Shown here: one piece after another, positions 7,046 to 44,332 of the stretch
Layout: each line of letters begins with the position of its first letter
How positions within the stretch are numbered: position 1 is the stretch's first letter
Origin: Thermoanaerobaculia bacterium
Lineage (GTDB): Bacteria > Acidobacteriota > Thermoanaerobaculia > Multivoradales > Multivoraceae
Direction of reading: 5' to 3'
Length of the DNA stretch: 64,000 nucleotides
Assembly: GCA_963666565.1 (NCBI GenBank)
Contig: OY762911.1
Coordinates: forward strand, 2,728,476 to 2,792,475
Notes under the pieces: generated by a model
Told to the model about the DNA's origin: nothing
Seen by the model: only the letters and a program-made list of their open reading frames with translations
Database searches by the model: none
Translations under genes and position numbers: made by a program

Positions 7046-8746
7046 TCAGATCCGGCCTCCGACGATCACGTCGAGCACCCGGGGGCCGCCGGCGGCGAAG
7101 GCTTCGCGCACCGCGTCCTCGACTTCGGCCGGATCCTCGACCTTCCGGCCCGGCACGCCCATGCCCGCGGCCATCTCGACGAAGTCGAGTTCCGGCTCGG
7201 TGAGGTTCATGTGGGGGTAGGGCCGGTCCGCCGGGATGCCGAAGCGTTCCCGGTAGATGTCCATGTTGATCTTCAGGATCTTGTACTCGCGGTTGTGCAG
7301 GATCAGGAAGACGATCGGCATGTCGTAGTGGGCGGCGGTCCAGAGCGCCTGGATCGAGTACATGGCCGAGCCGTCGCCCGAGAACACGATGACCGGCCGC
7401 TCGGGGTGGGCCAGCGAGGCGCCGATGCCGCCGACGAGTCCCTGGCCGATGCCGCCGCCGCGGGTGCCGCAGTAGCGGTCCGGGTCGTCGACGGGCAGGA
7501 AGCCGAGCAGGTCGCCGCCCGCGGTGATCGACTCGTTGACCACGACGGCGTCGTCCGGCACGGCCTTGGCGACCTCGGACATGAGGCGCGCCGGCGACAT
7601 GGGCGCGTCGTCGAAGTGGGCCTTGAGCCGCTTCCGGCGCGCGGCGTGCGCGCCTTCGGCGGCCGCCCGCAGCTTGTCCATGCGCTCCGCGGCGGCCGTC
7701 CGGAAACCGGCGTCCGCGGCCGCCTCAAGCGCCTCCCGCAGCGCCGCGAGCCCGGCCCGCGGGTCGGCGAGCATTCCCGCGTCGACCGCGAAGTTGAAGG
7801 CGAGCCGGCTCGGGGCGTCCTCGATCTGGAGCACGGCCGTTTCGGCGCCGAACGGGGAGTCCGGGTCGAACCAGACCTCCTCGAAGAAGGAGCCACCGAC
7901 CAGCAGGACGACGTCGGCACCGCCAAGCGCGTGCTGGATGCCTGCGTGGTTGAGCGGCATCCGCGGCCGGAAGCAGGGATGGCTCTGCGGGAAGTTCAGG
8001 CGCTGCATCAGCCCTTCCGGGTAGACCCCCGCGCCGAGGAACTCGGCCAGCGCGACGAGTTCCCGCTGGCCGCCGCTCCTGGCGACGCCGTCGCCGATCA
8101 CGATCGCCGGCTGACGCGCCCGGCCCAGCAGCTCGGCCATGCGGGCGACCGCAGCCGCTTCCGGCTGCGGCGCCCGGTAGAGGTCGCCGAGCGGCCGTAC
8201 CGGCTCCGAGGTCTCTTCCTCCAGGACGTTGAGCGGCAGCGCGACGAACACCGGCCCCGCGGGCGGATCGTGCGCCACCTTGAAGGCGCGGTGGAGGATC
8301 GGCGCGAACTCGTCGGCGCGCTCGACCTGGACGCTCCACTTGACCAGGGGATCGGCCATCGCCACCAGGTCGTGGCCCAGCAGGGGCTCGCGGAGCCGCG
8401 ATCGGGTGTCCTGCTGGCCGGCCGTGACGACCATCGGGGTGTTCGCCTCCCAGGCGTTGTAGAGCATGCCGAGGGCGTTGCCGAGCCCCGGCGCCACGTG
8501 CAGGTTGACGACCCCGGCGATGCCGGTCGCCTGCGCGTAGTAGTGCGCCGCGCCGAGCGCCACGGACTCGTGCAGCGCCAGGACGTAGCGCAGGTCCGGG
8601 TGGTCGGAGAGCCGGTCCATCAGCGGACTCTCCGTGGTGCCGGGATTGCCGAACAGGAACGGAATGCCGTACTCGGTCAGGGCGTCGAGCAGGACGTCGC
8701 CGCCGCGTTGGGGGCTGCGCTTCGGACGGATCGCTGGCAAGCTCAT
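7046..8746 (-). CDS. Thiamine pyrophosphate-dependent enzyme, benzoylformate decarboxylase (MdlC)-like.
   Basis: 566 aa from an ATG at 8746, which is the C-terminal part of the 1325-aa artefact ORF. Motifs align with benzoylformate decarboxylase: FGNPGTTESPLM, RYVLALHE, NLHVAPGLGNALG, VVTAGQQ, LVKWS and the TPP-binding GDGSAMYSIQALWTAAHY. Confidence 0.7.
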   Translation of the reverse strand: MSLPAIRPKRSPQRGGDVLLDALTEYGIPFLFGNPGTTESPLMDRLSDHPDLRYVLALHESVALGAAHYYAQATGIAGVVNLHVAPGLGNALGMLYNAWEANTPMVVTAGQQDTRSRLREPLLGHDLVAMADPLVKWSVQVERADEFAPILHRAFKVAHDPPAGPVFVALPLNVLEEETSEPVRPLGDLYRAPQPEAAAVARMAELLGRARQPAIVIGDGVARSGGQRELVALAEFLGAGVYPEGLMQRLNFPQSHPCFRPRMPLNHAGIQHALGGADVVLLVGGSFFEEVWFDPDSPFGAETAVLQIEDAPSRLAFNFAVDAGMLADPRAGLAALREALEAAADAGFRTAAAERMDKLRAAAEGAHAARRKRLKAHFDDAPMSPARLMSEVAKAVPDDAVVVNESITAGGDLLGFLPVDDPDRYCGTRGGGIGQGLVGGIGASLAHPERPVIVFSGDGSAMYSIQALWTAAHYDMPIVFLILHNREYKILKINMDIYRERFGIPADRPYPHMNLTEPELDFVEMAAGMGVPGRKVEDPAEVEDAVREAFAAGGPRVLDVIVGGRI

Positions 8747-8872: not shown

Positions 8873-11200
8873 ATGGAGGCGACGGCAATGGCCAGCGGCG
8901 AGACAGGCAACGGAGTACTGGACGAGCAGACGCAAGCGGCGGCGGCGTTCATGGGCGCCGACCGGTTCCAGGGAATCAGGAGGCTTCACACCGCGCGCGA
9001 AGTGGCGGCGCAGCGGGGCTCGATTCCGCAGGACTACACGGTGGCGCGGGACGCCGCGGCGGCCTTCCACGCGCGGCTGAGGGACCTGTTCGACCGGAGG
9101 AAGTCGATCACCACGTTCGGCCCGTACTCGCCGGGCCAGGCGGTGGCGATGAAGCGGCGAGGGATCGAGGGCATCTACCTCGGTGGCTGGGCGACCTCGG
9201 CCAAGGGCTCGATCACCGAGGATCCGGGGCCGGATCTCGCCAGCTACCCCCTGAGCCAGGTGCCGGACGAGGCGGCGCCGATCGTCCGCGCCCTGCTGAC
9301 GGCCGACAAGAACCAGACCTTCAACCGTTCGCGGATGAGCGAGGCGGAGCGGCGGGCGAACCCGGCGACCGACTTCCGCCCGTTCATCGTCGCCGACGCG
9401 GACACCGGCCACGGCGGCGAACAGCATGTGCGCAACCTGATCCGCCGGTTCGTCGAGGTGGGCGTGCCCGGCTACCACATCGAGGACCAGAAGCCCGGGG
9501 TCAAGAAGTGCGGCCACCAGGCGGGCAAGGTCCTGGTGCCGCAGGACGAACAGAACAAGCGGCTGAACTCCGCCCGCTTCCAGTTGGACGTGATGGCGGT
9601 TGCCGGCCTCATCGTCGCCCGCACGGACTCGGAGGCCGCGACCTTCCTCGACGGCAACGGCGACGAGCGCGACCAGGCGTTCATTCTCGGCGCCACGAAC
9701 CTCGATCTGCCGAGCTGCAAGACGGCGACCCTGGCCATCCTGCGGCGGCTGAACGCCCTGGGCGCGGAAGACGTCCGCGGCCACGAGCTGTACGAGATCT
9801 CGGAAGCCGCCTACCGCCGCGCCGACCTCTGGCTGGAGGGCGCCGGCGTCTACGAGCGGCTCGAGTCCGCCTACGGCAAGGCGGCCGCGAACGGCGGCGC
9901 GGCGGTCGAGGCCGCGCTCGACGAGACGATGGCCTCCTTCCTCGACGCCTGGCAGGCGGAGGCCGGGCTCAAGACCTACCCGCAGGCCGTGGCGGAAGTC
10001 ATCGCCTTCCGGGAAGAGGAAGGCGCGGTCTTCGATCTCTCGGTGGAGGAGTGGCTGGAGTTCGCCCACTCCGTGCCGGTCGAGGAAGCGGCGGCCCGTG
10101 CGCGCAAGATGGGCATCAACCTGGTCTGGAACGCCGAGATCGCGCGCACCCCCGAGGGCTACTACCAGATCCGGGGCGGCATCGAGTACGCGATCTCGCG
10201 TTCCCTGCACGCCGCGCCCTACGCCGACCTGATCTGGATGGAGACGGCGACCGCCAACCTGAAGGACGCGCGCCGCTTCGCCGAGGCGATCCACGCCGTG
10301 TTCCCGGACCAGTTGCTGGCCTACAACCTCTCCCCCTCCTTCAACTGGGACACGACCGGCATGTCGGACGAGGAAATGAAGAAGTTCCCGGAGGAACTGG
10401 GCAGGCTCGGCTACGTCTTCAACTTCATTACCTACGGCGGCCACCAGGTCGACGGTCTGGCGGCGGAGGACTTCGCCACCGCCCTGCGCGAGGACGGCAT
10501 GTTGGCGCTGGCCCGGCTGCAGCGGAAGCTGCGTCTGGTGGGGTCGCCCTACCGGACGCCGCAGGCCCTCGTCGGCGGCGCCCGGCTCGACGGCGGGCTC
10601 TCGGCCGCGACCGGCCACACGGCGACGACCAAGGCGATGGGCAAGGGCTCGACCCACGTTCAGCACCTGGCGCAGACCGAGGTGCCGCCGCGGCTGCTCG
10701 AGGAGTGGCTCGACCTGTGGCGCGGCAAGTACGACGTCGACGAGCGCATGCGCGTGGAACTCCGGCCCCACGTCGCCGGTTCCGAGCTCCTGGAGCTCAA
10801 CGTCCTGGCTCGGAACGGACGCGACGAGTCGAAGGCGGCGAACGTCGTCTTCGCGCCCATCCGCGACCGCCGAGAGCGGATGATCCTCTCGGTGCGCGAC
10901 CAGAACACCTTCGACCTCGACCTGAGGAGGCGCCGCCTGATGGCGCTGATCCACGTGTTCCTGATCCACCGCTACGGCGCGGCGTGGGTCCACTACGTCA
11001 GTCCGACGGACGACAACCAGCACCAGACCCGGCGCATGATCGAACTCGGGATCTTCGAGACGGCGAACACCGAGGTCGGCGAGATCATCGTCGCGGCGGT
11101 CAACCGGGAACGGGTCCGCGAACTTGCGGGGCGGGATCGCGAGTCGCTGACGGCGCTGATCGAGAAGACCGAACCGGCGCCGGTGCGGGCCGCCTCGTGA
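8873..11200 (+). CDS. aceA: Isocitrate lyase, long form (about 770 aa, ICL2/AceAb-like).
   Basis: ICL catalytic signature KKCGHQAGK. Mg/substrate loop [12 protein letters not shown]. Length and central insertion typical of long-form ICLs. The alternative start MASGETG at 8888 is possible. Confidence 0.8.
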
Positions 11201-11212
11201 TCCGGGCCGCCC

Positions 11213-11293
11213 GCTGGGTGCGCGGGTCTTCTGACCCGCTGCCGCCGAAGGCGGGCAGGAGCACGCGCCGCGAAGCGGCTCCGCTTGGCGGCC
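11213..11293 (+). repeat. Copy B of the triple-hairpin intergenic repeat.
   Basis: ctgggtgcgcgggtcttctgacccgctgccgccgaaggcgggcaggagcacgcgccgcgaagcggc. Hairpins GCGGGTC-TTCT-GACCCGC, GCCGCC-GAAG-GCGG and GCCGC-GAA-GCGGC. It begins 13 nt after the ICL stop and ends 18 nt before the metalloprotease GTG start. Confidence 0.85.
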
Positions 11294-11310
11294 GGTTCCA
11301 TAGCCGCGTC

Positions 11311-13905
11311 GTGACCGCGATCTGGGCGCTGGCCTCGGTCCTCTCGATTCAGGGTCTTCAGGCGCAGGACGCCGGGGCGGAGGAGCCCCGGTCGATCTCG
11401 GAAGCCACCGGAGGCTTCGAGCATCTGCCCGGCTTTCTCGACCTGTTCTGGGACAGCCGGGGCGGCAGGCTGTTCCTCGAGATCGACTCCTTCGACGACG
11501 ACCTGCTGTACATCGAGTCGCTGTCGGCGGGCCTCGGGTCGAACGACATCGGCCTCGACCGCGGCCAGCTCGGCGGCACCCACCTGGCGCGGTTCGAGCG
11601 GGTCGGGCCGAAGGTCCTGCTGGTGCAGCAGAACACCCGTTATCGCGCGCTGAGCGACAACCCGGACGAGCGGCGCGCGGTCGCCGACGCCTTCGCGCGC
11701 TCGGTCCTCTGGGGCTTCCAGGTGGCGGCCGAGGACGAAGGCGGCGCGGTGCTGGTGGACGCGACGGACTTCGTGCTCCGGGACGCGCACGGCGTCGTGG
11801 CGCGGCTCCGGCAACGGGGGCAGGGGAGCTACCAGTTGGACGCCTCGCGCTCGGCGATTCACCGTCCCGGCGTCGCCGCCTTTCCGCGCAACTCGGAACT
11901 CGAGGGCACGCAGACCTTCACCCTGCGGCCTTCGGAGCGGGGGCCGGGCGCCTGGGTTCGCCAGGTCGCGCCTTCGCCCGAGGCGCTCACGTTGCGCGTC
12001 CGCCACTCCTTCGTCGCCCTGCCCGAACCCGGGTACGAACCCCGGCTCGCCGATCCCCGTGCCGGCTTCAACGTGACCGGTTATCTCGACTACGCGACTC
12101 CCATCGACCAGCCGATCGAGACCGTTTTCATCGACCGGCACCGCCTCGAGAAGCGTGACCCGAACGCGGAGCGAAGCGAACCGGTCGAACCGATCGTCTA
12201 CTACCTGGACCGGGGCGCGCCGGAGCCCATCCGTTCGGCGCTGCTCGACGGCGCCCGCTGGTGGAACGAGGCGTTCGAGGCCGCGGGCTACATCGACGCG
12301 TTCCGGGTCGAGCTGCTGCCGGAGGGGGCCGACCTGCTCGACGTGCGCTACAACGTGATCCAGTGGGTGCATCGGTCGACCCGCGGATGGTCCTACGGCG
12401 GCGGGGTCACCGACCCGCGCACCGGCGAGATCCTGAAGGGCCACGTGACGCTCGGTTCCCTGCGGGTGCGGCAGGACTTCCTGATCGCCCAGGGCCTCCT
12501 GTCGCCCTACGAGGACGCGGACTCGTCCACCGAGGCGCTCACCGAGATGGCGCTTGCCCGGCTGCGCCAGCTTTCGGCCCATGAAGTCGGCCACACGATC
12601 GGCCTGATGCACAACTTCGCCTCCAGCGTCGATGGACCGGACGGCCGCGAGTCGGTCATGGACTATCCGCATCCGCTGGCCAGGTTGCGCGAGGACGGCA
12701 TGATCGACCTGAGCGCGGCCTACGACGTGGGCATAGGCGAATGGGACAAGCGGGCGGTCCTCTACGGCTACGCCGACTTCCCCGACGGCGCCGACGAGGC
12801 GGCGGAACTCGACGCCATTCTGCGCGGGACGATCGACGCCGGGCTCCACTTCATCGCCGACGAGGATGCGCGGCCGGTGGGCGGTGCCCATCCGCTGGCC
12901 CACCTCTGGGACAACGGCCGTTCGGCGGCGGAAGAACTGCGGCGCATCCTGTCCGTGCGGCGCGCGGCGCTCGACCGGTTCTCCGAGCGCAGCGTCCGGG
13001 TCGGCGATCCGCTGTCCGCGCTGGAGGACGTCCTGACCCCGCTCTACCTGCTGCATCGCTACCAGATCGAGGCGGCGGCCAAGGCGGTCGGCGGGATCGA
13101 CTACAGCTACGCCGTCCGCGGCGACGGCCAGGCGCCGGTGTCGCTGCTGCCGCCGGCGATGCAGTTCGACGCGCTGGACGCGCTGCTCCGGACGGTCGAT
13201 CCGGCCGAACTCACGCTGCCCCCGGAGATCGTCGACCTGATCCCGCCGCCGTCTCCGGGTCGCGGCCGCGGGCGGGAGCAGCTTCCGTCGCGCGCCGGCC
13301 CGGCGTTCGACCCGGTGGCCGCGGCCGAGATGGCGGCCGACCTGACCTTCGGCATGATCTTCGACGGCGCGCGCGCCGCCCGGCTGGTCGATCACCGTTC
13401 CCGGGCGGGGGCGCAGCCGGGTCTCCGCGCCGTGATCGACCGGGTGCTGGCCGCTACCTGGCGCGCCGATCCGCATTCGGGCCTTGCCGGAGAAGTCGGT
13501 CGGGCCGTCGACTTCGCGGCCCTGCGGCGGCTGATGCTTCTGGCGGCCGGCGGGCGGGTCGGCGGCGGCGCGTCGGCCGCCGTTCCGACGAACTTCGACT
13601 GGCCGACCGTGCCCGAGCGGAACGGTTCGTTCCAGGCGCGGGCCGAGGCCCGGGCCGATCTGGCGGCCCTGGAGGGTTGGCTGGAAGCGAATCCGGCCGC
13701 CGACGACCCGGCGGAGGAGGCGCACCGCGGCTATGCCCGCTGGCTGATCGGGCGTTTTCTCGAGGATCCGGGCTCGGTGGAACTGCCGGCCCCGCTGCGC
13801 GCGCCCGACGGTTCGCCGATCGGCTGCAGCGTCGGCCCGGGCGGTCTGGCGTTCGCTTCGTGGAGCGCCGGGCCCGGGTGGTCTTCGGGGTCGGCGCCGC
13901 CGTGA
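11311..13905 (+). CDS. Secreted zinc-dependent metalloprotease (DUF4953 / DUF5117-type met-zincin family).
   Basis: HEVGHTIGLMHNF zincin motif plus a downstream SVMDYP. About 865 aa from a GTG at 11311, with a hydrophobic N-terminus (VTAIWALASVLSIQGLQAQ). This is the real C-terminal 2.6 kb of the 1465-aa track ORF. Start is uncertain. Confidence 0.7.
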   Translation: MTAIWALASVLSIQGLQAQDAGAEEPRSISEATGGFEHLPGFLDLFWDSRGGRLFLEIDSFDDDLLYIESLSAGLGSNDIGLDRGQLGGTHLARFERVGPKVLLVQQNTRYRALSDNPDERRAVADAFARSVLWGFQVAAEDEGGAVLVDATDFVLRDAHGVVARLRQRGQGSYQLDASRSAIHRPGVAAFPRNSELEGTQTFTLRPSERGPGAWVRQVAPSPEALTLRVRHSFVALPEPGYEPRLADPRAGFNVTGYLDYATPIDQPIETVFIDRHRLEKRDPNAERSEPVEPIVYYLDRGAPEPIRSALLDGARWWNEAFEAAGYIDAFRVELLPEGADLLDVRYNVIQWVHRSTRGWSYGGGVTDPRTGEILKGHVTLGSLRVRQDFLIAQGLLSPYEDADSSTEALTEMALARLRQLSAHEVGHTIGLMHNFASSVDGPDGRESVMDYPHPLARLREDGMIDLSAAYDVGIGEWDKRAVLYGYADFPDGADEAAELDAILRGTIDAGLHFIADEDARPVGGAHPLAHLWDNGRSAAEELRRILSVRRAALDRFSERSVRVGDPLSALEDVLTPLYLLHRYQIEAAAKAVGGIDYSYAVRGDGQAPVSLLPPAMQFDALDALLRTVDPAELTLPPEIVDLIPPPSPGRGRGREQLPSRAGPAFDPVAAAEMAADLTFGMIFDGARAARLVDHRSRAGAQPGLRAVIDRVLAATWRADPHSGLAGEVGRAVDFAALRRLMLLAAGGRVGGGASAAVPTNFDWPTVPERNGSFQARAEARADLAALEGWLEANPAADDPAEEAHRGYARWLIGRFLEDPGSVELPAPLRAPDGSPIGCSVGPGGLAFASWSAGPGWSSGSAPP

Positions 13906-15524: not shown

Positions 15525-16388
15525 CTAACCGCCCGTCGCGTGGCGGTCCGGGTGGCGCATCGCGGTGATGTTGAACCCGGCGTCGACGAAGTGGATGCCG
15601 CCGGTGGTTCCGGCGCTCAGATCGGACAGCAGGTAGGCGGCGGTCGCGCCGACGTCGTCCACCGTGATGTTGCGGCCGAGCGGGGCCCGCTCCGGCATGA
15701 CCTTCAGCATGCCGCGCATTCCCGAGACGCCGGATGCGGCGAGCGTCCTCACCGGGCCGGCGGAGATGCCGTGAACGCGGATGTTCTTCGGACCCAGGTC
15801 GACCGCGAGGTAGCGGATCGAGGCCTCGAGCGCCGCCTTGGCGATGCCCATCACGTTGTAGTTGGGGGTCGCCTTGGTGGCGCCGTAGTAGGTCATCGCG
15901 ATGATGCTTCCGCCCTCCGTCATCAGCGGCTCGGCGGCGCGGGCGAGCCCGATCAGCGAGTAGCAACTGATGTCGAGCGCGGTGGCGAAGCCGGCGCGCG
16001 ACGTGTCGACCGTGCGGCCGAGCAGGTCCTCCCGGTTGGCGAAGGCCACGGAGTGGACGAGGAAGTCGAGGCGGCCCCAGCGCTCGGCGAGGGTGTCGAA
16101 CACGGCGTCGATCCGAGCGTCGTCCGTGACGTCGAGCGGCTCGACGATGGCGGAGCCGATGCTCGCGGCCAGCGGCCGCACGCGACGTTCGAGGGCGTCG
16201 CCCTGATACGTGAACGCGAGTTCGGCGCCTTCCTCGTGGGCGCGCCGGGCGATGCCCCAGGCCAGGGAGCGCTTGTTCGCGACGCCGACGATCAGACCGC
16301 GGCGCCCGGCCAGCAGTCCCCGGGAGGCGGCGCCGGCCGGGGACGGTTCCGACGCGGACTTCCGGGGCGATGAATCGGGCGCGGTCAC
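15525..16388 (-). CDS. fabI: Enoyl-[acyl-carrier-protein] reductase (NADH), FabI.
   Basis: Strong co-linearity with E. coli FabI ([66 protein letters not shown]). The annotated ATG may give an N-terminal extension of about 20 aa. Confidence 0.8.
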
Positions 16389-27575: not shown

Positions 27576-28781
27576 ATGACCGACCAACCTTCGATCCCCG
27601 CTCCGGCTTCCAACGCTCCGATCCGCCGCCGCGGACCGCGACTCCCGCGTTGCGGCCTCGCGATCGCGACGCTGGCCGCGGCCGCGTTGCTCGCGGCGCC
27701 CGCTTCCGCCGAGTTCGACGAGAGCCACCGCTTCGACGCCCGTTCGTTGCAGGTCACCAACCTGATCGGCAAGGTGACGATCGGACAGGCGACCGGCGAC
27801 GAGTTCGAGGTCGCCGTCTCCGTGCGCGGCGCCGATGGCCTGCCGCGGAACATCGCGATCGAGCAGGAGCGCGGCTCGCGCGCCCGGCTGGACGTCGTCT
27901 TCCCGGTCGACGACGAGCGCCGTTTCGTCTACCCGGAGTTCAGCCGCCGGCGCGCCCAGCTCTGGTTCCGGGAAGGCCGCTCACGCAGCCTGCTGGGGGA
28001 GATCCTGCGGTCCGTTTCGGGCCGCCGGATCCGGGTCGAACGGAGGGGCAGCGGCATGGAAGTCTGGGCCGACGTGACGATCCTCGTGCCCGCCGGCGCG
28101 TCGCTGAAGCTCGAGCACGGCGCCGGCGACGTGGAGATCGAAGGCGTCGCGGCCGACCTCGACGTGGACGTGAAGGCCGGCGCGATGGAGGCGGCCGGGC
28201 TGGACGGCCAGGTCGGGCTCAGAGTCGGCAGCGGCCGGCTGAACGTGAGCGACGCGCGTGGCGAGCTGAATCTCGACACGGGCAGCGGCGGGGTTTCGCT
28301 GGACGGCTTCGAGGGCGGCGCGCTCGAGATCGACACGGGCAGCGGGTCCGTCGAAGTGGCGGAAGCGACCGCGGAGACCGTGGAGATCGACACGGGCAGC
28401 GGCGGCGTGAGAGTGAACGGGGCCGAGGCCGAGATGCTCGCGATCGACACGGGCAGCGGCAGCGTCCGGGTCGCCGCCGCCGCGGTCGACGCCGCGGAGA
28501 TCGACACCGGGAGCGGCAGTGTCCGTCTCGCGCTCGACCGGATGGGCGGCGGGAACTTCGACATCGACACCGGCTCGGGCGGCATCTCCGTGCTCGTTCC
28601 CGAGGACGTGTCCGCCCGGTTCGACATCGACGTCGGCTCCGGCGGCATCGAGGTCGACGTGCCGATCGCCAGAACGCTGCACAAGAGCCGGGGCGAGATG
28701 CGGTTCGTGGCCGGCGATGGCGACGCGAACGTGGTTCTGGACACCGGCTCCGGCGGCGTCCGGATCGCGACCGTGGACTGA
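27576..28781 (+). CDS. DUF4097-family repeat protein (putative adhesin-like / beta-helical) with signal peptide.
   Basis: 401 aa. At least 8 tandem units of about 19-20 aa with consensus (E/D)IDTGSG(G/S)V.V. Signal peptide [20 protein letters not shown]. Confidence 0.65.
28250..28770 (+). repeat. Intragenic tandem repeats of about 57-60 nt encoding the DTGSG units.
   Basis: atcgacacgggcagcggc, or variants of it, recurs at about 28265, 28328, 28385, 28442, 28499, 28558, 28623 and 28736. Confidence 0.7.
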
Positions 28782-29326: not shown

Positions 29327-30237
29327 CTACAGGATGCTCCGTCCGAAGAGGGAGCAGAGCAGATCGAGGGCGAGCTTTGCCGTCCGGTTCCGGGTGTCGA
29401 GGATCGGATTCACTTCGACCACGTCGACCGAGCCGAGACGGCCGTGTTCGGCGATCAGCTCCATCAGCAGGTGGCCCTCGCGGTAGCTCAGGCCGCCGGG
29501 CGCCTGGGTGCCGACGCCGGGGGCCTCGCGCGGATCGATGCAGTCGAGGTCGAGCGAGACGTGGATGCGGTCGACATCGTCGAGACGCTCGAGGGCTTCG
29601 GCGGCGAGCGGCGCCAGGCCACGCTCGTCGATCTGCCGCATCGTGTAGGCGGCGACGCCGGCCGAGTGGATCAGTTCCTGCTCGCCGGGGTCGAGATCCC
29701 GCACGCCGAACAGGACGACGTCTTCGGTTCGCAGCTTGGCGCCGGGCCGGCCCACGTTGACGAGTTGCGGTGCGCCGTGGCCGCAGAGCGCGGCCAGGGG
29801 CATGCCGTGGAGGTTGCCGCTCGGCGAGGTTTCGGGCGTGTTGAAGTCGCCGTGGGCGTCGATCCACAGATCCACAGGACGCCGGTGCGCCGCTCGTGCG
29901 TGACGCCGCCGATCGTGCCGACGGCGATCGAGTGGTCGCCGCCGAGCACGAGCGGCAGGGCGCCGTCGGCCACCGCCTGCCGGCTCGCCTCGTAGATGCG
30001 CTCGCAGGCGTCGACGACGGGCGGCAGGAAGCCCAGGCCCGGTTCTTCGGCCAGCGCGTCCCGCTCGACGGTCTCGATGTTGCCCCGATCCTCGACGCGG
30101 TAGCCGAGCCGGGTCAGGGCCGACTTGAGGCCGGCGTAGCGGAGAGCGGTGGGGCCGAGGTCCACGCCGCGGCGGGACTGCCCGAGGTCCAGCGGCGCGC
30201 CGACGACGCGGATCGTGGTCCGGGCGGGGCTGGGCAT
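29327..30237 (-). pseudogene. rocF: Arginase (ureohydrolase family) disrupted by an 8-bp tandem duplication that causes a frameshift.
   Basis: The N-terminal 123 aa (MPSPARTT...GGDHS...GVLWI) read in one frame from the ATG at 30237. The C-terminal 180 aa (DLWIDAHGD...SLDLDCIDP...DVVEVNP) read in another frame, ending at 29327. The + strand has atccacag atccacag at 29862-29877. Deleting one copy restores a continuous roughly 300-aa arginase with all canonical motifs. Confidence 0.75.
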
Positions 30238-37379: not shown

Positions 37380-38654
37380 TTGTCCAAGGAGCCGAGGCGT
37401 GGGCAAGGGATGGTTCCGGCGGAGGCGGCCGGGCTCTACGTCCACATCCCCTTTTGCTCGGCGATCTGTCCCTACTGCGACTTTGCGGTGGCGCGGGGTG
37501 GCGAGGCGGATGGGGAGCGGTTTGTTGATGCCTTGGTTGGAGAGATCGATTCCTTCGGCTGCAGGGGGCGAGAGCGGAATCGGACTGGCGAGGCTGAGAG
37601 GTTCGGTACCGGCGGGTTCGACACTGTGTACTTCGGCGGAGGTACTCCCTCGGCGCTGGGCCTGGAGCAGCTTGGGGCGATTCGGCGGCGATTGGTCGGG
37701 ACGTTCCTGATCGATCCCGAGGCCGAGTGGACGATCGAGGTGAACCCGGAGGATGCGTCGCCCGAGGCGCTGTCGGGCTGGCGGGAACTCGGTTTCGACC
37801 GGGTCAGTCTGGGCCTGCAGGCGTTGGACGATCGGGCGTTGCGCTTTCTCGGGCGGCGGCACGATGCGGCGGCGGCGCGTGCGAGCGTCGAAGGGGCACG
37901 TGCCGCGGGTTTCCGGTCGGTGTCGGTCGACCTGATCTACTCGTTGCCCGGATTCGACGGCGGCTGGTGGCTTCGGACGCTGGACGAGGCGGCGGCGCTC
38001 GGGCCGGACCACGTCTCCTGCTACGAACTGACGATCCACGACGGGACGCCGTTCGGCCGGCGGCGGGACGCGGGCAGGCTGCGGGACACCGGCGAAGACG
38101 AGCGGGCCGCCAACTTCGTCGCCACGCATCGGCGGCTCGCGAAGCTCGGCTACGAGGGCTACGAGGTCTCGAACTTCGCCCGCCGCGTGGCGGACCGGAG
38201 CCGCCACAACCGGAAGTACTGGCGGCACCGGCCCTATCTGGGGCTGGGGCCTTCGTCGCACTCCTTCGCCGGGCGCAGTCGGTGGTGGAACGTGGCTCCG
38301 TGGAAGGACTGGAGCGCCGCGGTGGCGAGCGGTGAATCTCCGGTCGCCGGTCGCGAGGAACTGACCGACGACCAACTGCTGCTGGAAGCGGTGATGATGG
38401 GACTCCGCCAGCGATCCGGCATCGACTGCGCCGCGCTGGAGCGGCGTTTCGGCATCGATCCGTCCGCCGGCAACGCCGGGCGAATCGAAGCCTGGGAGAA
38501 GGCGGGCTGGCTCCGGGTCGTTGGCCGGCGACTGACGCCGACCCTCGAAGGCATGGCCCGGGCCGATCGCCTTGCGGGGGAGTGGATCCTCCCGGCCGGC
38601 GGTAGCCGGCGCCGCCGGAGGCGCGCGGCCTCGTCGTCGCCCGTGAGCGGGTAG
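37380..38654 (+). CDS. hemW: Radical SAM heme chaperone HemW / HemN-like coproporphyrinogen III oxidase family protein.
   Basis: CSAICPYC radical-SAM Cys triad near the N-terminus. HemN C-terminal-like domain. Confidence 0.75.
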   Translation: MSKEPRRGQGMVPAEAAGLYVHIPFCSAICPYCDFAVARGGEADGERFVDALVGEIDSFGCRGRERNRTGEAERFGTGGFDTVYFGGGTPSALGLEQLGAIRRRLVGTFLIDPEAEWTIEVNPEDASPEALSGWRELGFDRVSLGLQALDDRALRFLGRRHDAAAARASVEGARAAGFRSVSVDLIYSLPGFDGGWWLRTLDEAAALGPDHVSCYELTIHDGTPFGRRRDAGRLRDTGEDERAANFVATHRRLAKLGYEGYEVSNFARRVADRSRHNRKYWRHRPYLGLGPSSHSFAGRSRWWNVAPWKDWSAAVASGESPVAGREELTDDQLLLEAVMMGLRQRSGIDCAALERRFGIDPSAGNAGRIEAWEKAGWLRVVGRRLTPTLEGMARADRLAGEWILPAGGSRRRRRRAASSSPVSG

Positions 38655-38667
38655 TCTGACCTCGACG

Positions 38668-39201
38668 ATGAGACGCCCGCCCGCAGGAGCGGAGAAGGTG
38701 CGCGCCCTGATGCGGCGCCTGGGCGGTGCGGCCCGCAGTCCCGGGCGGATCTATCTGGTGGGGGGCGCCTCCGCCGTCCTCGTCGGCTGGCGGGAGACGA
38801 CGATCGATGTCGACCTCAAGCTCGATCCGGAGCCGGAGGGCGTCTTCGCCGCGATCGCCGGGGCGAAGGAGGCGCTTCGGGTGAACGTGGAACTCGCGGC
38901 GCCCGACGACTTCCTGCCCGCGCTGCCCGGGTGGCGCGACCGCAGTCCGTTCGTCGCGCGTCACGGGGTTGTCGATTTCTTTCACTACGACTTCCACGCC
39001 CAGGCTCTCGCGAAGATCGAACGGGCCCACGCCCAGGACCTGGCCGACGTGGAGGCGATGCTGGAGCGCGGCCTGGTCACGGCGCCGCGGCTCCTGGATC
39101 TGTTTCGACGGATCGAGCCTGAACTGGAACGCTATCCGGCAGTCGAGCCCAGGTGTCTTCGCCTGAGGGTGCTTCGCTACGCCGGCGAGGACGGGGCATG
39201 A
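38668..39201 (+). CDS. Hypothetical protein with a nucleotidyltransferase-fold-like N-terminus.
   Basis: 177 aa. GGASAVLVGWRETTIDVDL resembles the hG[GS]...DhD NTase signature. Family not recognised. Confidence 0.35.
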   Translation: MRRPPAGAEKVRALMRRLGGAARSPGRIYLVGGASAVLVGWRETTIDVDLKLDPEPEGVFAAIAGAKEALRVNVELAAPDDFLPALPGWRDRSPFVARHGVVDFFHYDFHAQALAKIERAHAQDLADVEAMLERGLVTAPRLLDLFRRIEPELERYPAVEPRCLRLRVLRYAGEDGA

Positions 39202-39605
39202 CCGGGCCGGAAACGGCTGCGCTCGACCGCGTGCCGGCGACGCTCCCGGGCGCGGATCTCGTGGCGGCGGGGATCGAGGCGCTGCGGCGGGGAGAGACGA
39301 CGGAGGAGGCTCTGCTGGTTCTGATCGGCGCCTGGCGGCTCCGCGCCGCCGGTCTGGATGTTCCGGCGGCGCCGGACCTCGAGACGTCGCCCGAGATCGC
39401 CCTCTACGGGATGATCGCCGCCAGGCGCTCGGCCGACGCGCACTCCCGTTACAACGCGCTTGTCCGTCGCCTGGTCAGCTTCGAGCGCGCGTTGGAGAGC
39501 CGGCCTTCGGCCGGCGCGTCTTTCCGGCCGCCTTCGGCGGCAGCCGGCGAGGACGCCGGCGCACCCAGTGTGCGGCCCCGTTCCCCGCGCGACAGCGCAG
39601 CCTGA
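39198..39605 (+). CDS. Hypothetical protein, translationally coupled to the upstream gene.
   Basis: 135 aa from the ATG at 39198. ATGA overlap with the upstream stop. No recognisable motif. Confidence 0.3.
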   Translation: MTGPETAALDRVPATLPGADLVAAGIEALRRGETTEEALLVLIGAWRLRAAGLDVPAAPDLETSPEIALYGMIAARRSADAHSRYNALVRRLVSFERALESRPSAGASFRPPSAAAGEDAGAPSVRPRSPRDSAA

Positions 39606-42704: not shown

Positions 42705-43886
42705 CTACGCCGTAGCCGACCGCGGCCGGTTCACCACCCGGTCGAGCGCGCCGCGCAGGTCGGCGACCAGGTCTTCCCCGTTCTCGATTCCGATCGAGAG
42801 CCGCAGGAGCCGGTCGCCGATGCCGGCCGCGGCCCTTGCCTCCGCCGTCATCGAGGCGTGGGACATGGTGGCCGGGTGGGAGATCAGGCTCTCGACGCCG
42901 CCAAGGGACTCGGCGAACGAGAAGCACGTCAGGTTCGAGACCAGGTGGGCCACGTCGCCGGCGTCGCCCCGGAGGTCGAAGCTCGCCATGGCGCCGAAGC
43001 CGTCCTGCTGGCGCCTGGCGATCTCGTGGCCGGGATGGTCCGGCAGGCTCGGGTGGTAGACCCGTTCGACGGCCGGATGCTCGCGGAGCATCTCGACGAC
43101 CGCCAGCGCGTTCTCCTCGTGGCAGCGCAGGCGGCTGTGCAGGGTGCGCAGCCCGCGCAGCGTCAGGTAGCTGTCGAAGGGAGCGCCGGCCACGCCCATC
43201 ATGTTCGCCCACTCCTCGAAGAACTCGTGGAGTTCCGGCGTCGCGGCGACGACGGCGCCGCCGACCACGTCGCTGTGGCCGTTCAGGTACTTCGTCGTCG
43301 AGTGGATGACCGCGTCGGCCCCCCGTTCGATGGGCCGCTGAAACGCCGGCGACATGAACGTGTTGTCGGCCACGACCAGCGCGCCGGCCTGCTTCGCGTG
43401 TCGGCAGACGGCTTCCAGATCGGTGATGCGAAGCAGCGGGTTGCTCGGCGTCTCGACCAGAACCAGCCTCGGTCCCGAGGCGAGAGCCGTCGCCGCGGCC
43501 TGCCGGTCCGTCAGGTCGGCGAACTCGACCTCCAGCAGGCCGCGCTGCCGGAGGCGGTCGAAGAGGCGGAACGTGCCGCCGTAGCAGTCGTGGGCGGCGA
43601 CGATCCGGTCGCCGGGGTCGACCAGTTGGCAGACCAGGGTCACCGCCGCCATGCCGGAAGCGGTGACGACGGCGCCGTGGCCGCCCTCGGCCTCGGCCAG
43701 CGCTTCGGCGAGGGCGGATCGCGTCGGGTTGCCGGAGCGCGTGTAGTCGTACGGCCGCTTGCCGTCCAGGCCGGCGAACGTGAAGTTGGCCGAGAGATGC
43801 AGCGGCGGAACGACCGCTCCGTGGTGTTCGTCGGTAGCGAGCGCCGCGCGGACGGCGCGGGTTGCCGGGTCGTGGTTCTTTGTCAT
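42705..43886 (-). CDS. Cystathionine gamma-synthase / beta-lyase family PLP enzyme (Cys/Met metabolism).
   Basis: HSTTKYLNGHSDVVGG PLP-lysine motif. N-terminal NPTR. Confidence 0.8.
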   Translation of the reverse strand: MTKNHDPATRAVRAALATDEHHGAVVPPLHLSANFTFAGLDGKRPYDYTRSGNPTRSALAEALAEAEGGHGAVVTASGMAAVTLVCQLVDPGDRIVAAHDCYGGTFRLFDRLRQRGLLEVEFADLTDRQAAATALASGPRLVLVETPSNPLLRITDLEAVCRHAKQAGALVVADNTFMSPAFQRPIERGADAVIHSTTKYLNGHSDVVGGAVVAATPELHEFFEEWANMMGVAGAPFDSYLTLRGLRTLHSRLRCHEENALAVVEMLREHPAVERVYHPSLPDHPGHEIARRQQDGFGAMASFDLRGDAGDVAHLVSNLTCFSFAESLGGVESLISHPATMSHASMTAEARAAAGIGDRLLRLSIGIENGEDLVADLRGALDRVVNRPRSATA

Positions 43887-44332
43887 GTGAGTCTCCGGTC
43901 GAAAGGAGGTTGGGCGGTCCCGCTTGCGCGGAACGGGTTCAACGCTCTCCCGAGAAGACTTCTACGGAGAGTGACCGGAGGTGGCGTCGAAACCGCGTTC
44001 ATGCGGCTCTTGACTCATCTCTCGGCAAGCCCCGTCCGAGGACGGAACTCCCGTAGGAGTTGGCACCTTCCCCAGGGTTGCGAAGCCCCGGTGGTTGCCC
44101 CGGCGTCGACGGGCCTGTCCCTCAGCCGGTCTCGATGAGTTGCTCCGGCCACGGGGAACCGCGCCGAAGCGGACGGATCGTAGCAGACGGTCGCGCGCCC
44201 GGCGGCGAAGCCGCCGGTGCTATGCTGATCGGCAGTTCCGTTGACCCTCTCCGGGCGACGCGTGTCGTCCTGGTTCGCTTTTCGGTAACGCCGCATCCCG
44301 CCGTCGGGATGGGCATTGAAGGGAGGTCCCTG

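Follow-up and report, generated by a model that had tools for sequence, protein, structure and literature searches.

Organization of the arginase locus

A stretch of 64,000 nucleotides from a Thermoanaerobaculia (Acidobacteriota) genome, here called the window, was analysed. On its minus strand it carries a rocF-type arginase gene whose coding sequence is divided over two reading frames by a short exact tandem duplication. The following features were assigned to the locus:

29327..30237, minus strand: whole rocF-type arginase gene, frameshifted (PF00491, TIGR01229 and structure matches of the repaired protein)
29869..30237, minus strand: native N-terminal coding part, residues 1-123 (tblastn HSP; PF00491 profile positions 3-117)
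29671..29868, minus strand: out-of-frame tail of the N-terminal ORF, 65 codons and the stop at 29671-29673 (translation)
29327..29875, minus strand: C-terminal ORF of 182 aa with the motifs DAHGD, SLDLD and EVNP (PF00491 profile positions 115-279)
29862..29877, no strand: exact 8-bp tandem duplication, ATCCACAG twice on the plus strand and CTGTGGAT twice on the coding strand
29855..29883, no strand: perfect 6-bp inverted repeat GGCGTC/GACGCC flanking the octamers (inverted-repeat search)

The plus-strand octamer at 29862-29869 is repeated exactly at 29870-29877, and reading of the sequence confirmed the first-pass annotation in placing this pair within an arginase gene of the minus strand. The period-8 identity covers 17 bases (29861-29877), which leaves the junction of the duplication ambiguous by one base. 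As written, from 30237 to 29327, the gene measures 911 nt, which is 2 mod 3; with one octamer deleted it measures 903 nt, corresponding to 300 aa and a stop codon. A tblastn comparison of the repaired protein with the window gave two segments of 100% identity: frame -2 encodes residues 1-123 (30237-29869), and frame -1 encodes residues 121-300 (29869-29330). This agrees exactly with the 123 codons in one frame and 180 codons in another that had been proposed earlier. The C-terminal ORF starts at a GTG (29875) located within the duplicated octamers.

Taken simply as a repeat, the octamer pair does not exceed chance expectation, with two exact 8-mer tandem loci in the window versus a mean of 2.37 in composition-matched simulations. 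The duplication is significant because the orthologues carry a single copy, the extra copy lies inside an invariant motif and the frame is broken.

Some other features of the window were recorded as well. The DUF4097 gene (27576-28781) contains a tandem repeat with a 57-bp period at 28378-28525 on the plus strand (2.6 copies, 72% matches), corresponding to internal 'IDTGSGSV...' repeats of the protein. In the gap near 44 kb, a SAM riboswitch (RF00162) was found at 44012-44141 on the minus strand with 72.2 bits (gathering score 44.4). It is situated directly upstream of the minus-strand gene 42705-43886 for a PLP-dependent enzyme of Cys/Met metabolism (PF01053, 446 bits), which is the standard S-box arrangement. 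A second frameshift was considered for two overlapping plus-strand ORFs at 38668-39201 and 39153-39605, and was rejected for want of evidence of a split family: the first ORF (177 aa) gave a marginal match to the DUF6036 nucleotidyltransferases (23.8 bits, cutoff 23.6), and the second (150 aa) matched no family. The two ORFs may form a small pair of accessory or toxin-antitoxin-like genes, or else belong to a gene that has degraded.

Identity of the gene and predicted fate of its product

The repaired protein matched PF00491 with 253.9 bits (cutoff 22) and spanned the profile end to end (3-279 of 280 positions), the two fragments adjoining each other on it (3-117 and 115-279). It also gave a full-length match to the rocF arginase equivalog TIGR01229 of NCBIfam with 305.5 bits, above the cutoff of 227.6, and scored far under the cutoffs of the agmatinase and formimidoylglutamase models. 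The best structure matches were the arginases 2EIV and 2EF4 of Thermus thermophilus and 1CEV of Bacillus caldovelox (E ~1e-91). In the repaired protein the motifs GGDHS, DAHGD, SLDLD and EVNP are located at residues 99, 124, 225 and 272, respectively, and the first Mn-ligand His is residue 102, within GGDHS. The expectation that removal of one copy restores an arginase of about 300 aa with all Mn-binding motifs was thus borne out, the restored protein having 300 aa and passing TIGR01229. No arginase paralogue was found within the window.

In arginases, the binuclear Mn centre is held by one His, a D-x-H-x-D motif and a D-x-D motif. In the gene as written, the six ligands (His of GGDHS; Asp, His and Asp of DAHGD; two Asp of SLDLD) do not occur together in one polypeptide. 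Translation from the normal ATG departs from the native frame after Ile123, continues for 65 unrelated residues and terminates at 29671-29673. The truncated product of 188 aa (123 native and 65 out-of-frame residues) retains one of the six Mn ligands, the GGDHS His, and is devoid of DAHGD, the SLDLD ligands and the EVNP glutamate; the 182-aa C-terminal ORF is devoid of GGDHS. Because five of the six Mn ligands are missing, the 188-aa product should be inactive. The frame split, together with the comparative data given below, supports the proposal that the 8-bp tandem duplication inactivates the arginase gene, the loss of activity itself being predicted from the missing ligands.

The gene could still be functional if a -1 ribosomal frameshift joined both parts into one protein with three additional residues, or if the two fragments were made separately and associated with each other. 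Both fragments keep intact family sequence, and the duplication itself supplies the in-frame GTG at 29875 that heads the 182-aa ORF. However, no Shine-Dalgarno-like sequence is visible upstream of this internal GTG, and no slippery heptamer of the type X XXY YYZ was found in frame upstream of, at or just past the site. None of the relatives carries a split gene or a two-frame arrangement; all are read in a single frame. In addition, the break directly precedes Asp124, the first ligand of the invariant DAHGD, where, judging from the structures 1CEV and 2EF4, three inserted residues or a chain break would be expected to disrupt the Mn site. With no slippery site, no ribosome-binding site and no conservation, recoding and a split enzyme were both rejected, and a gene that still works is hardly credible.

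The 182-aa C-terminal ORF is identical to P0121, a protein that NCBI and ENA list as an entry of its own and that clusters with full-length arginases. P0121 and the LepA protein of the window (P0124) are each recorded on just one contig, of 4,786,144 bp, so the window comes from a chromosome-scale MAG in which the fragment had been annotated as a gene. P0121 may mislead metabolic reconstructions of this MAG into counting arginase as present; should the lesion be an artefact, an absence call may in turn be the wrong one.

Comparison with related genomes

Among the matches listed, the closest genomes were Acidobacteriota MAGs labelled Thermoanaerobaculia, Holophagales or 'Candidatus Multivorans', and the arginases of these listed MAGs, with lengths of 300-303 aa, were intact and shared 83-88% identity with the repaired protein. 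The relatives have a common gene order consisting of lepA (divergent), arginase, an EVE-domain gene, DUF4097 and efp. This order is kept even at one locus with just 64% arginase identity, and the genes are therefore positional orthologues. In all 16 positional orthologues (L081, L084, L001-L013 and L019) the octamer is present in a single copy, and the motif, which opens with G[VI] and continues for another 12 residues, is invariant among them.

The contigs L081 and L084 belong to one ENA metagenome assembly, ERZ21830300, and match the window in the arginase region with 94-97% DNA identity. L081 (~97% in this region) encodes an intact arginase of 301 aa (P0001), and L084 an intact arginase of 300 aa (P0123) that differs from the repaired window protein in five residues. 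Both showed a clean 8-bp gap at the exact site of the duplication, with the frame read straight through. Two further metagenome contigs (L082 and L083), ~76% identical to the window, were single-copy as well. These two were the only matches of a scan of the metagenome collection with a junction pattern tolerating 0-8 extra bases, which gave no second sighting of the two-copy allele. Because all relatives compared are single-copy, the two-copy state is taken to be derived and unique to the source of the window.

The neighbourhood of the gene varies between relatives. An ENA relative with 76% identity (contig of 35,666 bp) encodes a protein of 448 aa (P0050) with both an Arginase domain (PF00491) and an EVE domain (PF01878); either the arginase and EVE genes are fused there, or the intervening stop codon was lost or misread. 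The window has 19 nt between its arginase and EVE genes, which are separate there, and EVE is preceded by a ribosome-binding site of its own, AAGGAGG. On L084, the closest intact relative, arginase and EVE are separated by two additional genes, one for a RES-domain (toxin-like) protein and the other for a protein of 399 aa that matches no family, and a gene for an ankyrin-repeat protein adjoins lepA (L084 positions 10948-12856 and 7273-8292); all three genes are absent from the window and from L081. Compared with the window, L084 also has uncompensated single-G insertions at 15615, 15753, 2102, 3824, 4073, 4654 and 4719. They split efp (192 aa, with the C-terminal domain missing) and two DUF3604 genes, which are intact in the window, and have the appearance of either homopolymer errors from long reads at low coverage or real decay of that contig.

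Age of the lesion

Changes on the branch leading to the window arginase were counted with L081 as sister and 13 outgroups. Approximately 12 synonymous and 6 nonsynonymous changes were found on this branch, the latter being either conservative (V/I, I/V, T/S) or located within the variable N-terminus. In pairwise comparison with L081, the repaired arginase showed a dN/dS of 0.18, and seven intact neighbouring genes gave values of 0.04-0.24. The GC3 of the repaired gene (0.923) falls among those of the intact orthologues (0.865-0.930), and no second stop codon or indel was found in the repaired arginase. The gene thus carries a single lesion, its constraint is not relaxed and its orthologues in close relatives are intact, as in a recent pseudogene that has not yet decayed.

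These data support purifying selection on the arginase until essentially the present and a lesion that would be very recent. Of the origins offered by the first-pass annotation, the very recent event is the one that gained support, from a dN/dS similar to that of the neighbours, a normal GC3 and the absence of a second lesion.

Authenticity of the duplication

The duplication may also have arisen outside the cell, in which case the actual chromosome would carry a single octamer and an intact, functional arginase. Polymerase slippage during library amplification, consensus calling or polishing could each have introduced the extra copy. The two-copy allele is known from a single contig only, every relative compared is single-copy, and an independent assembly of the strain, or one with the two-copy allele, was not found in the collections searched. 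An otherwise flawless gene showing no relaxed constraint is also what an artefact would give.

The sequence around the site speaks against an artefact, in particular one of the long-read homopolymer type. Residual indels in long-read consensus sequences concentrate in homopolymers (PMC9262707); no homopolymer is present at the site, the octamer having no run of one base longer than two, and no other broken gene was found in the window. Over ~16 kb aligned to L081, the 8 additional bases of the arginase gene are the sole net frame-breaking coding indel, and all other in-gene gaps are either compensated +1/-1 pairs a few bases apart or sum to a multiple of three. The window is tiled by ORFs of high GC3; essentially full-length Pfam matches were obtained for eight of the ten neighbouring genes tested, and HemN is intact at 37380-38654. 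The window also reads intact at the sites where single-G insertions disrupt efp and DUF3604 on L084. Finally, the source is a single contig of 4.79 Mb, which suggests good coverage. On this evidence a sequencing, consensus or library artefact is unlikely, if far from negligible, and the sequence data lean to a duplication that is real and probably present in the cells.

Is the duplication a phase-variable switch?

Collapse of the two octamers to one by slippage, at an appreciable rate, would restore the gene, and the two-copy state could then be one phase of a reversible switch in a mixed population of arginase-ON and arginase-OFF cells. In favour of such a switch, perfect tandem duplications can revert precisely, and in-ORF tandem duplications in phcA of Ralstonia solanacearum revert according to Poussier (2003), as cited in bioRxiv 10.1101/2023.04.27.538605. 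Furthermore, at least two related strains with an intact arginase coexist in sample ERZ21830300. However, these coexisting strains differ by 3-7% in DNA and are therefore not switch variants of the window strain. An in-ORF duplication in agrA of S. aureus never reverted in a reported screen (PMC6686034).

The structure of the site does not resemble that of a contingency locus, in which a pre-existing multi-unit tract varies among relatives. The window has two copies of the 8-mer and no multi-unit tract, and one unit is found in the 16 orthologues as well as in L082 and L083; single copies in 16 of 16 relatives imply that a conserved contingency tract does not exist here. The target is, moreover, a metabolic enzyme of housekeeping type. 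The phase-variable slipped-strand option raised in the first-pass annotation accordingly found no support in the copy number, in the relatives or in the kind of gene affected. A reversible on/off switch is improbable, and equally improbable is its more specific form, a slippage-driven arginase switch with the two-copy state as one of its phases in an uncultured, possibly host-associated acidobacterial population. Were it true, the cells would show heritable cell-to-cell heterogeneity in the flux from arginine to ornithine and urea.

Proposed origin and significance

The data are best explained by a real null mutation that struck a conserved rocF-type arginase very recently in evolutionary terms; we assign this explanation a probability of roughly 0.6. 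A slippage-type replication event in the lineage leading to this MAG, a chromosome-scale Thermoanaerobaculia (Acidobacteriota) assembly, would have copied CTGTGGAT in tandem, placing the duplication within codons 121-123 of the arginase gene. Ribosomes would then leave the native frame after Ile123 and read 65 unrelated codons up to a stop. Without Asp124, His126, Asp128, the SLDLD aspartates and the EVNP glutamate, the resulting 188-aa product is predicted to be incapable of assembling the binuclear Mn centre, and hence to be inactive.

A one-base microhomology (G...G) bounds the tandem copy and is consistent with replication slippage. Slippage promoted by a hairpin was also considered, in view of the inverted repeat flanking the octamers. 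The hairpin of the single-copy DNA has a predicted stability of -6.4 kcal/mol, which is no higher than that of shuffled sequence (z = 0.38 versus shuffles), and this candidate was rejected.

The lesion is an ordinary loss-of-function mutation, with assembly error less likely, and it is no new kind of system. If it is real, one uncultured Thermoanaerobaculia strain has just lost an arginase that is kept at the same position in the relatives examined. This would be a small example of strain-level metabolic loss before any decay, with little importance beyond bookkeeping. A search of the literature on Thermoanaerobaculia, sponges and arginase returned nothing specific.

Comparison with known systems

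Compared with the bacterial arginase RocF (TIGR01229; structures 2EF4/2EIV and 1CEV), the repaired window sequence aligns end to end and has the same four motifs. In contrast to RocF, the window gene as written has 8 additional bases that divide it over two frames, and none of its ORFs holds all metal ligands. The intact orthologues (P0123 on L084, P0001 on L081, and those of L001-L013 and L019) share gene order and motif with the window at 83-98% protein identity, and differ from it in having one octamer and an uninterrupted ORF of 300-303 aa.

With regard to the type of mutation, the duplication in the window resembles that in phcA of Ralstonia solanacearum, where a short perfect in-ORF tandem duplication likewise produces a frameshift null allele. 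In the pneumococcal gene cap3A, too, a short in-ORF tandem duplication inactivates the gene. For phcA and cap3A reversion was shown experimentally and the phenotypes concern the surface or virulence, whereas the window gene encodes a metabolic enzyme and shows no sign of reversion. The phase variation of glpK in M. tuberculosis through homopolymers or SSRs (PMC10334774) also involves a frameshift by strand slippage, like the one proposed for the window. At homopolymer and SSR loci such as glpK, however, a tract with many units pre-exists and is conserved from strain to strain, whereas the ancestor of the window had a single, non-repetitive octamer.
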